33,137 bases of DNA from Promethearchaeota archaeon (GCA_048940925.1 JBHLOC010000052.1:1-33137), one strand, 5' to 3'. Positions 3,942-13,819 are shown, counted from the stretch's first letter. Translations and numbers: made by a program. The notes: generated by a model not told the origin, from the letters alone.

Positions 3942-5774
3942 TTATTCAATATTACCGAAATATTTTTGGATTAAATTATTCAAATCTAACCAATTATCTT
4001 GATCGGAACAATTTTCTTCTATGTCTTCAATTAAATCTCTATAATTTATATCAAATTCCGTAACTAAAGCTTTTAATTTCCTCTCAAGCAAATTTATATT
4101 TTCTTTTACAATGAGTACAAATACAACATCTTTCGTATTATTTAAATTAAATATTATTGTTCGGTCACCGTGATTTATTGATTTAATTTGAGTTTCTCCC
4201 TTAAGAATTGCTTTTAAAATTGTCATTAACCCTATAATTCCTCCAGAAATTAAAGATGAATCATTAAATCCCTCCAAATTATTAAAGGCATAATCATATA
4301 GCGGTATACCAGATTTATAAATTATATAAAGATGGATTAACACGTCTCTCCATTCTTTTAATGGTAAGCAAATTCTAAATACAGAGTAATTTTCTTTTTC
4401 TTCTGAATCAATATGAATTTGACCCTTATGTAAATCTATTATTTGTTTCGAAAATGAAATTTCTTGATATATTTCATCTCCAGGAGATTGATACAGTTTA
4501 CCCTTTATCCCTATTTCTCCGAAATTATTAACATTTTTTAGATTAATTAAAATATCCTGATCATTTGAATTTCTCCTTATGTAAGAGATAATTTCATTTA
4601 TTACTAGCCTAATCCTCAACTTATCTACTTCAGAATATAAATCTTCAGAAAGATCTATATTAGTTTTTATCTTTCGTGCCTCTTCTTTATCATTTAATGA
4701 ATTGATTAATTCCAATATAATTTCAGACAAACTTTCAGTTTGTTTATTTAAAATCAATTGATCAGATTCCATCTTAGAAATGTTGACTATTTTTCCTACC
4801 AAATCTAAAGATTTTTCCCCCTCATTTTTAATCAATTCTAAGAGTTTTAATACATCATCATCTAATTTATCTCTATAAGAATTTAAAATGATATTAGTAG
4901 CGTTTGATAATACATTTATTGGATTTTTTAATTGTTCTGAAGCTTTACTAGTCATTTTTTTTTTCATGTTATCGAGATCCCTTAACCTCCTATTTTCTTC
5001 TCGGATAATTCTTTCTGCGAGTATTTTTTCAGTGATATCCTGCAACATAACCTGCACAAGTTTTTTATCTCCTATTTTAAATATCGAAAAAAATGCTTGT
5101 ACCCACGATTTTTTGTCATAAGTTCTAAATTCCATGACTTCGCTTAAACCATACTCGAGAACATTTTGAAAAACTTCATTATAATCATCTTTCTGATTTT
5201 CATTTAATTGGATAATATCTGAGAATGGAATATTTTTTAAATCATTCTTCTGTTTATTTAGATATAATTCAGCAGAACTATTACAATCATATACACGCTG
5301 TTGAGAATCTAATAAAAGTATTGAATATGGAAAGCTTTCCACTAAATTCCGATATTTTTCTTCTGATTCTCTTAAAATTTTTTCTGTTCTTTTCCATTTA
5401 GTTATATCTCTTCCAACCTTTATGATTTGCTCAATATTACCATCTTTGTTCTTAATTGGATAGGCTAAAAATTCTATATATAATTCTTCTTCATTAACAT
5501 GATGAATATGAGTAGATTTATTAAAATTGCCAGTCCTTAACACATCCTCAACGGGGCATTGGCATTCTGGAGGTTTACAAATGGATTTTTTCCCATGCGT
5601 TAACTTAAAACATTTGTTTCCTATAATTTGCTTTTTGTTTAAACCATATTTTAAACAAAAAGTTTCATTCACATCTTTGATTGATAAATCTTTATCTAAG
5701 ATCATAATTTCATCAAATATAGAATCTAAAATTATCCTAAAACGTTCATTTTCTTGTTTTATACTATATTCCAT
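3942..5774 (-). CDS. PAS-PAS-degenerate HisKA/HATPase (pseudokinase) fused to a C-terminal longin-like domain
   Basis: Two PAS/PAC units ending RDIT and QDIT; H-box SEQLKNP lacks His; N/G boxes lost; tail LIHLYIIYKSGIPLY...LISGGIIGL...VVFVLIV...LKALVTEF has the longin pattern. Confidence 0.8.
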   Translation of the reverse strand: MEYSIKQENERFRIILDSIFDEIMILDKDLSIKDVNETFCLKYGLNKKQIIGNKCFKLTHGKKSICKPPECQCPVEDVLRTGNFNKSTHIHHVNEEELYIEFLAYPIKNKDGNIEQIIKVGRDITKWKRTEKILRESEEKYRNLVESFPYSILLLDSQQRVYDCNSSAELYLNKQKNDLKNIPFSDIIQLNENQKDDYNEVFQNVLEYGLSEVMEFRTYDKKSWVQAFFSIFKIGDKKLVQVMLQDITEKILAERIIREENRRLRDLDNMKKKMTSKASEQLKNPINVLSNATNIILNSYRDKLDDDVLKLLELIKNEGEKSLDLVGKIVNISKMESDQLILNKQTESLSEIILELINSLNDKEEARKIKTNIDLSEDLYSEVDKLRIRLVINEIISYIRRNSNDQDILINLKNVNNFGEIGIKGKLYQSPGDEIYQEISFSKQIIDLHKGQIHIDSEEKENYSVFRICLPLKEWRDVLIHLYIIYKSGIPLYDYAFNNLEGFNDSSLISGGIIGLMTILKAILKGETQIKSINHGDRTIIFNLNNTKDVVFVLIVKENINLLERKLKALVTEFDINYRDLIEDIEENCSDQDNWLDLNNLIQKYFGNIE

Positions 5775-5793
5775 TTTTATATCACCTAAAAAG

Positions 5794-7356
5794 TTATACT
5801 GTTATTTTTTTTCTATTATTTTTTTGTTCCTCATAAACAATGGGATTTAAAAGTTCAAATAAAATGATAAAATTACTCCCCTTAGTATAATCACCCTTAA
5901 CTTTATTTTCTATCCAGATTTTCCCATTATAGCTTTCTATTATCTTTTTTACAAGCGATAAACCTATTCCTAAACCTTTAATTGAATCAACTCTCTCTTT
6001 GTATCCTCGCTTGAAAACTAATTCTTTCAATTGATCTGGAATTCCTCTGCCATTATCAATAAATTCAATTTTAAGATATGTATTCCTATTTTCTTGAACT
6101 TTTGATATTCTGATAATTATCTCAATTATTGAATTATCATTATGTCGGACACAATTTAATAAAATATTTTCAAATAAATCAATTAAAAGATTATTTCCTT
6201 TAATGTAATAAGGTTTTTCGGGTGCGCTTAATTGGATGTTAATCTTTTTTTCTTGAAACATTGTAGTAATATATTTGATCGATTGTCTTAAGATCGGATA
6301 AACTTCCATTCGTGTAAATTTTCCTTTATCTGCTTCAATTTCAGACAGTTTAATAACGTTTGATATTAATTTCCCTGCTCTGTTAATTTGTTCTTCAGCA
6401 ACCTGGATTAATTCTTCAAAATTTTCAATTTTTATGGATTCATTTTGACATAATGGTAATAGTTCTATAAATGAAACAAAAAATTGAAAAATATTGTTAA
6501 TATCATGAACAAAGATATCTTTATACAAGTTGATTTGATTATAAGCATCTCGATATCTTTTTTCTGACTCTTTCAACATTTGCTCTGATTTTTTCCGTTC
6601 AGATATATCCCTTATTATATCTATAACTGCTGGTTGTCCTTTAAAGTTCAAAATTGGAGTACAACTATATTCAAAATGCTTAGTTTCAGTTTTATTTGGG
6701 TTAAAGTAAATTAATTCATACCTTCTGTTGACATCGTAATTATTGGATAATATGTTAAATGAACAGTGCTCGCATATACTTTTATTACTTGTTAAAATGT
6801 TATAACATTCTTTTCCAATTTGATGACTTCCAAACATCTCTTTGGCCTTTTTGTTCATATAAAATATTTTCAAATCTTTTGATATAACAATAATTGAATC
6901 ATTAGTGTTTGATAAGATTAAATTCAATTCTTCTTCAGATTCCTTGATTTGTTGATTAATTGTCATGCGTTTCGTGATATCTCTTCCAAGCTTAACGATT
7001 TGTTCAATATTGCCATTCTTATCCTTTATTGGATAAGCTAGAATCTCTAAATATATTTCTTTTTCATCAATATGATGACTATGAACTGATTCCGCAAATT
7101 TACCCGTTTTTAAAACATCCTCAACTGGACATTTACATTCTGGAGGTTTACAAATAGAATTTCTCCCATGAGTTACTTTGTAACACTTATTTGCTATGAC
7201 ATTTTCCTTATCGACGTTATATTTTAAACAAAAAGATTTATTCACATCTTTTATTGAAAAATCTTTATTTAAAATCATTATTTCATCTGAAATGGAATCA
7301 AAAATTGATATCAAGTTCTTTCCTTTTTGATTATAATTGTCTGGCAATTCATTCAC
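5794..7356 (-). CDS. Cytoplasmic PAS-PAS sensor histidine kinase
   Basis: H-box FVHDINN, N-box ENILLNCVRH, G1 DNGRG, G2 GLGIGL, G3 GSNF; two PAS domains; no TM segment. Confidence 0.92.
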   Translation of the reverse strand: MNELPDNYNQKGKNLISIFDSISDEIMILNKDFSIKDVNKSFCLKYNVDKENVIANKCYKVTHGRNSICKPPECKCPVEDVLKTGKFAESVHSHHIDEKEIYLEILAYPIKDKNGNIEQIVKLGRDITKRMTINQQIKESEEELNLILSNTNDSIIVISKDLKIFYMNKKAKEMFGSHQIGKECYNILTSNKSICEHCSFNILSNNYDVNRRYELIYFNPNKTETKHFEYSCTPILNFKGQPAVIDIIRDISERKKSEQMLKESEKRYRDAYNQINLYKDIFVHDINNIFQFFVSFIELLPLCQNESIKIENFEELIQVAEEQINRAGKLISNVIKLSEIEADKGKFTRMEVYPILRQSIKYITTMFQEKKINIQLSAPEKPYYIKGNNLLIDLFENILLNCVRHNDNSIIEIIIRISKVQENRNTYLKIEFIDNGRGIPDQLKELVFKRGYKERVDSIKGLGIGLSLVKKIIESYNGKIWIENKVKGDYTKGSNFIILFELLNPIVYEEQKNNRKKITV

Positions 7357-12809: not shown

Positions 12810-12961
12810 TTAAAAAGATTAGTTTTCTTAAAAAATGTTATATCAATGAAAAAATTTATAAAAATTAAAGATATTAAAATAGTTTAAGATTAAATTTTAA
12901 AATTTAAGTATATTTTTATCTAAAATAAAATAATTTATTATCCAAGATTAAATCGCTTAAA

Positions 12962-13819
12962 TTGTTATTTATGATTCGAAAAAACGTTTTGACTAAAGAA
13001 GAAAAGAAAGAAATGAAGCAATATGAACAAGAAACAGGAAAGAAGGCGATATGGCGTGGAGTTATCACAGAAGGATTTAAAAAATGGAAGCGTGGGGAAG
13101 AAATTTATGGTAAAGATAAAAAAGGAATAGGGATTCTAGTATCTGAGAAAACAAAATCCAAATGGGAGGAATTTGCTAATGAAAATAATTTTTCTACTGT
13201 CTCAAAACTGATAAGAAAAGCTGTCAACTTTTATATTGATATGCAATCAAAAGAGGATCTATTGAGTAATATTCCAAAAGTATCACATGATTTGAAAGAG
13301 CCATTAACCGTGATAGAAGGATTTGCCCAATTAATAATGGAAAATGAATCAGATTATTTAAAACCAGATGTCTTATTAAAAATAAAAGAAATTTATTCTC
13401 AAAGTTTGTATCTTGAAAAGAAAATAGATGAAATACTTAGTAATTCCAAACTTGAAACGTCTCAATATGATATTTTAATAATTGAAGATGATATAGCAAC
13501 AATAACAGTTTTAACTGATTTTTTTGAATTACGAGGGTATTCATGTAAAGGAATTCCTAGTGGAATAAAGGGTTTGGAAGAATTAAAAAAATCTGTTCCA
13601 AAATTAATTTTATTAGATATTATCTTACCTGATATTAATGGATATGAAATTTGTAGGAAAATAAGATCTGATGAAAAATACAAAGATATTCCTGTTTTCT
13701 ACATTACAGCGATGCCAGAATTAGAAGTAAGTGAAAAAACAAAAGAAACTGGAGCAGATGGATATCTTTTAAAACCCTTTAAATTTCCTAAATTTAGTAT
13801 ATTATTTAATTATTTATAA
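12962..13819 (+). CDS. Response regulator: N-terminal module + ribbon-helix-helix-like + HisKA (no ATPase) + receiver
   Basis: IGILVSEKTKSKW...VSKLIRKAV (RHH-like), SHDLKEPL H-box, receiver IEDD / LLDIILP / ITA / KPF. Confidence 0.85.
   Translation: MLFMIRKNVLTKEEKKEMKQYEQETGKKAIWRGVITEGFKKWKRGEEIYGKDKKGIGILVSEKTKSKWEEFANENNFSTVSKLIRKAVNFYIDMQSKEDLLSNIPKVSHDLKEPLTVIEGFAQLIMENESDYLKPDVLLKIKEIYSQSLYLEKKIDEILSNSKLETSQYDILIIEDDIATITVLTDFFELRGYSCKGIPSGIKGLEELKKSVPKLILLDIILPDINGYEICRKIRSDEKYKDIPVFYITAMPELEVSEKTKETGADGYLLKPFKFPKFSILFNYL

Follow-up and report, generated by a model that had tools for sequence, protein, structure and literature searches.

A conserved cluster of GTPase, roadblock and V4R-fold genes with two-component neighbours in a Loki-type Asgard archaeon

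With which proteins does a small GTPase of an Asgard archaeon work? Small GTPases, roadblocks and longins number in the dozens in Asgard genomes. In MK-D1, GTPase genes are generally not in operons with roadblock, longin or TRAPPC3 genes, and therefore it is hard to match the GTPases to their GTPase-activating proteins (GAPs) or guanine nucleotide exchange factors (PMC10933270). Here we examined a gene cluster that is an exception to this statement, located in a 33,137-nucleotide stretch from Promethearchaeota archaeon (GCA_048940925.1, JBHLOC010000052.1:1-33137), referred to below as the window, which is a complete 33-kb contig of a 4.8 Mb genome with 29.6% GC. A sequence-only reading had described positions 3942-13819 as a divergent super-operon in which two-component signalling, a small GTPase, four roadblocks, a longin and an acetyltransferase form a soluble Asgard pathway. 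We found that a core made of one or more genes in a sensor slot, a roadblock gene, a GTPase gene of the MglA group 2-5 type and two or three further roadblock genes is kept across Asgard classes. With a probability of roughly 55%, we read the locus as a soluble G-protein signalling system that resembles the actinobacterial conservon.

Gene content and conservation of the cluster

The features of the window that belong to the cluster, or are loosely attached to it, are as follows.

3942..5774, minus strand: PAS-PAS pseudokinase with a C-terminal longin (longin at ~3945-4355); phospho-His, N-box and G-boxes gone; own clade
5794..7356, minus strand: PAS-PAS histidine kinase; H, N and G boxes intact; dispensable
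7414..8124, minus strand: predicted GNAT acetyltransferase with a C-terminal 3-Cys microdomain (7468-7581); start probably an ATT at 8124, the first standard start being TTG at 8013
8240..8698, minus strand: roadblock Rb1 (Rb1/Rb3 subfamily, DG motif); overlaps the GTPase stop
8691..9341, minus strand: small GTPase, MglA group 2-5 type; Thr for the Arg finger, GxPGQ, NKxD; family-specific interswitch insert
9342..9708, no strand: intergenic region between the two divergent arms; a BRE/TATA-like element at ~9589-9606, ahead of the V4R gene, is conserved
9709..10179, plus strand: V4R/Bet3(TRAPPC3)-fold protein, candidate sensor; conserved Cys97 and Cys117
10199..10327, plus strand: 42-aa microprotein, C-x13-C-x14-C with all three Cys invariant; its gene follows that of V4R in tight coupling
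10343..10708, plus strand: roadblock Rb2, of the most conserved subfamily; among solved structures, closest to the Asgard roadblocks 7F8M and 7YH1
10724..10734, plus strand: T11 run, probable terminator; such runs follow Rb2 in most family copies
10805..11254, plus strand: roadblock Rb3, paralog of Rb1
11298..12809, plus strand: coiled-coil protein with a C-terminal roadblock (third subfamily); orthologs outside the host's family lack the coiled coil
12971..13819, plus strand: RHH-HisKA-REC regulator; His and receiver intact, no ATPase
13854..16898, minus strand: six-PAS histidine kinase, intact, convergent on RHH-HisKA-REC; likely its cognate kinase; beyond the bounds read earlier
17154..17819, minus strand: 221-aa protein, loose member; adjoins the second copy too; a homolog is fused to V4R elsewhere (32% over 207 aa)
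17978..18523, minus strand: Rab-like GTPase with degenerate G3/G4, loose member; common to two other copies

All eleven genes of the sequence-only reading lie where it had placed them and in the same orientations, and a Pfam scan of ten cluster proteins backs the GTPase, three of the roadblocks, the GNAT and the PAS/HisKA/HATPase and REC domains. The cluster proteins are soluble, as had been claimed, with no hydrophobic 19-mer scoring above 1.83. The Asgard origin was likewise confirmed; since the named ortholog carriers are Promethearchaeota metagenome-assembled genomes, Harpocratesius repetitus FW102 and Helarchaeota, the host is, judging from its orthologs, a Loki-type Asgard archaeon. The window DNA is also present in mangrove and sediment metagenome runs. 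The right end at 13819 was set too short, because the six-PAS kinase recurs and DNA homology to the closest relative extends from 3945 to 17021; the conserved unit, including this kinase, runs to ~17000.

A second copy of the cluster, in the same order and with 42-81% identity, is found on contig C82, and the divergent layout occurs at 16 loci in five genera of the host's family. Thus, the conserved synteny that had been predicted was found on comparing neighbourhoods across Asgard genomes, and absence from relatives, set beforehand as its refutation, was not seen. Assembly artefact or chance was ruled out, as the same order appears in independent genomes at 74-83% DNA identity. The C82 copy itself may be pure contamination, given a bin contamination of 8.4%; on the other hand, several genomes hold two or three copies, and some of these are arranged in tandem on the same contig.

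In Helarchaeales, Harpocratesius, Thorarchaeota and one Heimdallarchaeon, the ancient core is one co-directional operon with the order V4R, microprotein, Rb2, GTPase, Rb1/3-type roadblock and third-type roadblock. In the host's family the core is rearranged into two arms and accompanied by the His-less kinase-longin, the GNAT-microdomain protein, RHH-HisKA-REC with its convergent kinase and, often, transcription factor B (TFB). The GNAT, the pseudokinase-longin and RHH-HisKA-REC were found only in this family, apart from a pseudokinase in one sister-family genome. The two-arm form is probably a derived rearrangement of the older operon. An intermediate layout was observed at one locus (L207 3641-6728), where V4R, Rb2, Rb3 and the coiled-coil roadblock are co-directional and followed by the GTPase, with no microprotein.

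To call the locus a super-operon is an overstatement for genes read from sequence. The B recognition element (BRE)/TATA-like element is conserved ~107 bases before the V4R gene, and the T run after Rb2 is 8-13 in most family members, compared with mostly 2-4 after V4R and the microprotein. Because this conserved T run follows the roadblock at 10343, the sequence suggests more than two transcripts at the locus and, among them, a short V4R-microprotein-Rb2 transcript with partial read-through.

The GTPase, its roadblocks and the slot before Rb2

The cluster GTPase is a 216-aa single-domain protein with MglA-type motifs, in which G1, G4 and G5 are intact. The position of the Arg finger is Thr (Thr47) in 76/76 family members, and G3 reads GxPGQ, with Gln100 in 72/76 and with V, S, C or A as the four commonest states of x. 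MglA groups 2-5, to which the conservon GTPase belongs, are defined by Thr at the Arg finger and G3 GTPGQ (PMC4316618). The cluster GTPase agrees with them in two of three motif tests, namely in the Thr and in the coupled roadblock gene with a DG pair, here that of Rb1, which overlaps the GTPase gene. The group 1 marks, an intrinsic Arg finger and TVPGQ, are absent. In the PDB, Myxococcus MglA matches it best (E 7.8e-11), with Rab21 almost level (1.4e-10); by its motifs, we consider it neither a Rag nor a Rab.

The GTPase subfamily was detected in 66 of 400 Asgard genomes (E<1e-30), and its tree, a fast tree only, broadly tracks the families; one clade, to which the window copy belongs, spans genera. 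In genus g21 (L127, L128) the GTPase occurs without roadblocks, and two genomes have stops inside the match, possibly a decaying remnant. At a Baldrarchaeota-type locus (L143 5392-8522), roadblock genes alternate with distant V4R-like genes behind the GTPase.

At least two roadblock genes lie within 3.5 kb at 64/78 GTPase loci, and at least three at 52/78. They sort into three old subfamilies that are encoded together; the split between Rb1 and Rb3, seen in Harpocratesius as well, is a later duplication. The Asp of the DG pair is present in 69 of the 71 scored Rb1/Rb3-type roadblocks, whereas the other two types mostly have Lys or Arg there. The fourth roadblock (11298..12809) is supported by short orthologs (PF03259, E 0.054) and by a clade of its own. 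The parts said to be shared between the arms are shared indeed: the roadblocks at 8240 and 10805 are 32% identical, and residues 145-182 of the GNAT are 55% identical to the microprotein over 38 residues, which covers the Cys microdomain. In one other copy (L082 6538-8231) the coiled-coil-roadblock open reading frame continues into a TruB/Cbf5 domain, probably through misassembly or a frameshift, and a protein with a zinc finger and a roadblock-like tail and a TFB paralog recur in further copies (L031 9247-9912 and L033 13805-14680); both are absent from the window.

The protein encoded at 9709 had no Pfam match. Its model (predicted local distance difference test, pLDDT, 83) has the V4R/Bet3/H-NOX fold, in line with the V4R-like protein of the sequence-only reading, with DmpR (Z 10.0, root-mean-square deviation (rmsd) 4.4, 146 aligned), PoxR (Z 9.9), Bet3 (Z 8.8, rmsd 3.6, 142 aligned) and a Thorarchaeota TRAPPC3 (Z 8.3) as matches; a TRAPPC3 ranked top in Foldseek. 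The V4R family was found in 40/400 Asgard genomes. It is accompanied by the microprotein at 34/35 V4R loci, with 43 pairs spaced within ~25 bases, and this pair, not a kinase, is the most constant upstream partner of the core. The slot before Rb2 is filled by V4R and microprotein, by a MopR/DmpR-type V4R (PF02830, PF06505) or by a two-CW protein (NF045718, E 2e-61). Since three unrelated or distantly related Cys-rich, sensor-like genes fill one slot, the arrangement suggests that it is an input position.

Searches of NCBIfam, of PDB sequences and of the ESM Atlas matched the microprotein family to nothing but unnamed clusters, and by this it appears as an undescribed family. In its 4-Cys Helarchaeales form the Cys spacing resembles that of high-potential iron-sulfur proteins, a likeness of spacing only. 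That a loss of Cys in V4R is offset by a fourth Cys in the microprotein holds at three loci and fails in G062, and the idea was rejected. In Thorarchaeota another free microprotein gene often lies ahead of V4R (L137, L138, L153, L161, L166, L171 and L172). In one Coatesbacteria genome the order is PAS protein, PATAN, roadblock, V4R and microprotein.

The GNAT gene and its identity were correctly read, with PF00583 and PF13508 above cut-off and the acetyl-CoA motif RxxGxG kept in most orthologs, and the product is a predicted acetyltransferase; the start at 8013 is probably wrong. The frame is open and homologous upstream of TTG 8013, and an ATT at 8124 lies 8 bases after GAGGAG. Because this ATT aligns with the initiator Met of the orthologs, it is probably the start, non-canonical or mutated. 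An internal deletion lies behind the start, and the HEAT repeats of the orthologs are lost. Where V4R is missing in the host's family (G142, G122, G145b and G102c), the GNAT-microdomain is missing too. Complex prediction of a V4R dimer with the GNAT microdomain scored 0.45 (runs of 0.10, 0.45 and 0.63) against 0.00 for the best control, with contact agreement of at least 54% and partner pLDDT of at least 40; the mark is reached by 58/80 solved and 2/110 mismatched pairs, and at scores of at most 0.60 by only 7/80 solved pairs and both mismatches. The modelling thus lends weak support to a contact between them.

Kinases, the pseudokinase-longin and the surroundings

The tail of the 3942 protein has the longin fold that had been proposed, its model matching CPLANE (Z 12.8, rmsd 3.0, 126 aligned), the TRAPP core (Z 12.4, rmsd 2.8, 127 aligned) and also Mon1 longins. 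No ortholog has the phospho-His, and the N and G boxes have decayed, by which the protein reads as a true pseudokinase; the longin is well conserved despite the lost catalysis. The pseudokinase-longin proteins form a clade of their own (support 100/100, 15 rows, 0 with His), and in the host genome they occur only in the two cluster copies. About 26 close longin matches were found in the class, 17 of them at core loci, and one in G024 lies beside GNAT and Rb1 at a contig end.

The phospho-His with its ATP boxes is present in the kinases at 5794-7356 and 13854-16898, and a receiver at 12971-13819; the 3942-5774 protein lacks the catalytic set. Most loci that reach far enough also have a large intact PAS kinase convergent on the RHH regulator, and the six-PAS kinase is the likely cognate kinase of RHH-HisKA-REC. 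The PAS kinases have no hydrophobic segments. Kinase clustering at the locus exceeds chance: sequence within 5 kb of a kinase gene makes up only 4.7% of the genome, and 7/24 kinase genes are in the two cluster copies. A kinase lies within 5 kb at 10/13 Thorarchaeota V4R loci (five genera) against 2/12 other loci, counts in which kin are not independent; those Thorarchaeota genomes have 20-38 HATPase matches each. A HisKA protein flanks the Heimdallarchaeon operon. A three-Cys cluster was also observed in five PAS domains of the three kinases (3942-7356 and 13854-16898), and similar PAS domains flank Thorarchaeota loci.

Winged helix-turn-helix (wHTH), HTH-PAS, TFB and ribbon-helix-helix (RHH) regulators recur around the operon, and longin-wHTH-like genes lie near Thorarchaeota loci; these partners support the link to transcription that had been drawn earlier. 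The C82 copy holds a 42-codon TFB remnant, and the host genome has about a dozen TFB-like genes.

To the right of the conserved unit, the 221-aa protein at 17154 had no informative match in the ESM Atlas, and one genome fuses its homolog to V4R. The Rab-like protein at 17978-18523 has an intact P-loop, no DxxG in G3 and an altered G4, and the ortholog beside the second copy is degenerate likewise. A TrmO-like gene and a 401-aa gene flank both copies (window 552-2209; G000 C82 39582-41641), which suggests that the segment common to the copies is larger. For the membrane gene at 3054-3746 there is no paralog and no conserved link, and it was left out of the cluster. Further right there is an inverted duplication, ~74% identical, of a single-PAS gene region (18794-19600 and 20885-21697), and two such PAS genes lie beside the second copy. 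A gene-poor stretch holds degenerate direct repeats of 124-300 bases (22017-24428 and 22437-25930), probably decayed duplicated genes. As for island hallmarks, there is no tRNA in the window, no integrase among the annotated genes and no convincing flanking repeat.

Known systems and competing explanations

The actinobacterial conservon, or AGPS, combines the kinase CvnA, the roadblock CvnB, CvnC and the MglA group 2 GTPase CvnD (PMC4316618, PMC13621833), and the cluster resembles it in a Thr/GxPGQ GTPase encoded with roadblock and histidine kinase genes, in a probable regulatory output and in accessory sensor genes. In contrast to the conservon, it has three roadblock subfamilies instead of one, a V4R-microprotein slot, a response regulator and a longin; its PAS kinases are soluble, without transmembrane helices or HAMP of the CvnA type, and a kinase is no constant member. 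The dedicated kinase of the four conservon genes is always present, whereas the core occurs without one in Harpocratesius and Helarchaeales, and the kinases vary; the locus therefore falls outside the conservons proper. No Pfam match to CvnC (DUF742) was found among the ten scanned proteins, and the wHTH genes flanking Thorarchaeota loci match MarR/IclR-type models. Between G2 and G3, MglA has ~20 residues, compared with ~42 here, and the second G3 residue is C/V/S/A, not T. With MglA/MglB groups 2-5 (Wuichet and Sogaard-Andersen, PMC4316618) the cluster shares the catalytic motifs, DG in one roadblock type, the long G1-G2 spacing (Lys18 to Thr48) and a link to transcription regulators; V4R, microprotein and longin partners are not described for these groups. 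Group 3 (one or two MglB with REC-like/wHTH) and the PATAN-linked groups 1/5 are closest, and the Coatesbacteria locus has PATAN-roadblock-V4R-microprotein. The comparison with conservons and MglAB made in the sequence-only reading is supported.

Its comparison with Rag/Ragulator stands for the likeness of folds and not for kinship, since the GTPase is MglA-type. Like Ragulator-Rag and TRAPP, the cluster groups a small GTPase with proteins of the roadblock, longin and Bet3/V4R folds, here putative partners in a complex, and it differs from them in a GTPase of neither the Rag nor the Rab family and in the lack of a lipid anchor. The 216-aa GTPase lacks the fused C-terminal roadblock domain expected of a Rag, and in place of the longin heterodimer that sits on a Rab in TRAPP there is one longin, fused to a pseudokinase. 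Thus, the locus is not a member of either system. Caulobacter DivL is a PAS-containing kinase homolog without phospho-His. The pseudokinase resembles it in lacking this residue and in being plausibly a scaffold for a live kinase, a resemblance only, and differs in its longin tail and unrelated partners.

An Asgard operon of LAMTOR1-like, Rab-like and DENN genes and NPRL2-like longin fusions to two-component domains have been published (10.1101/2020.10.19.343400). Both cases have a GTPase-roadblock operon, a longin fused to two-component parts and proposed pathways centred on two-component signalling; here the GTPase family is another, there is no DENN, and the longin fusion is physically linked to the GTPase operon. 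The RHH-HisKA-REC architecture had been noted in Lokiarchaeum (PMC5847659). These two parts were already published (10.1101/2020.10.19.343400; PMC5847659); the combination, of which the sequence-only reading knew no description, was not found in our literature searches either, subscription journals being largely outside the coverage.

From the gene content, motifs, folds and fusions we infer the following physical links. Signals may run in either direction between kinases and GTPase, and not necessarily from the kinases as the sequence-only reading had it. The V4R dimer and the 3-Cys microprotein would sense a small ligand, a metal or redox state and act on roadblock dimers, which in turn would determine whether the GTPase carries GDP or GTP; among the roadblocks, the Rb1/Rb3 type with its DG pair is the strongest candidate for a GAP. 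The longin tail would let the dead kinase dock on the roadblock/GTPase assembly, linking it to the phosphorelay. Transcription would be the output, and the GNAT would be recruited to V4R by its copy of the microdomain.

Several observations weigh against this conservon-like system. The GTPase lies without roadblocks at several loci (G073, G074, G312c and G318); V4R and microprotein stand alone in the bacterium GCA_040961635.1, next to genes for an F-type ATP synthase, and the microprotein is missing with some distant V4R homologs. Several close longin matches are in other settings (G087:C25, G086:C4 and G068:C283) or on contigs whose length does not allow a judgement. Six loci have the live kinase of 5794 and four close copies lack it, no kinase lies near the core in Helarchaeales loci, and the closed Harpocratesius genome, which has the core, has the nearest of its 17 HisKA genes ~245 kb away. 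The kinases of the Thorarchaeota loci form a separate clade, and the link there may therefore be convergent.

Perhaps, then, the core operon is a genuine GTPase module, and the kinases, the regulator and the GNAT, with a pathway of their own, travel along with it in a mobile signalling region and are co-regulated with it at most. Close copies with 85-92% protein identity differ in their left flank, where DNA homology stops at ~3940, and vary in kinase content; the cluster has 26.7% GC compared with 29.6% for the genome, its two carrier contigs come 4th and 6th among 62 by how atypical their tetranucleotide use is, the V4R gene is in only 7/53 genomes searched of the genus, and the GTPase clade of the window mixes two genera. 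Set against this, the GNAT shares its extra domain with the core microprotein alone and is not found at loci that lack V4R, the pseudokinase retains its longin after losing catalysis while one genome fuses this longin to Rb1, and kinases and regulators recur beside the operon in Thorarchaeota, the Heimdallarchaeon and Coatesbacteria. Mere co-travelling is possible, and on balance we regard it as unlikely.

The eukaryote-like and bacterial roles fit less well than the conservon-like reading. As a forerunner of TRAPP/Ragulator, the Bet3-fold, longin and roadblock subunits would form one exchange-factor scaffold for membrane remodelling. The three folds do lie beside a small GTPase, V4R matches Bet3 and the Thorarchaeota TRAPPC3, the longin matches TRAPP and Mon1/CPLANE, and the operon reaches Heimdallarchaeota; yet the GTPase is MglA-like, V4R matches the DmpR/PoxR ligand sensors as well or better, the longin lies outside the ancient core, membrane anchor and C-terminal Cys are absent, the neighbours are transcription factors and kinases, and the roadblock-V4R-microprotein trio is found in a bacterium, which makes this role improbable. 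MglB/MglC systems have several roadblocks. A Myxococcus-like MglA/MglB polarity switch for cell shape, protrusions or movement would agree with this number and with MglA as the best solved-structure match, but that match is nearly tied with Rab21, the group 1 motifs are absent and no motility or cytoskeletal genes recur at the loci; we consider such a switch very improbable. It is more tentative than the conservon-like reading, and rather doubtful, that the locus descends from an ancestral Asgard complex in which a Bet3/V4R sensor, a Cys microprotein and heteromeric roadblocks act on one GTPase and a longin-tipped dead kinase couples this switch to His-Asp phosphorelay and transcription, with the same folds as TRAPP/Ragulator. 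If true, it would be a working prokaryotic assembly from the TRAPP/Ragulator fold set.

The cluster adds an undescribed microprotein family and narrows the possible partners of one GTPase to a few small, soluble proteins, a fixed set kept from Lokiarchaeia to Thorarchaeota and Heimdallarchaeota. It makes testable the action of several roadblocks on one GTPase, the role of Asgard V4R/Bet3-fold proteins and whether longin-kinase fusions join phosphorelays to GTPases, and thus names concrete candidate partners of a GTP switch in the closest archaeal relatives of eukaryotes.

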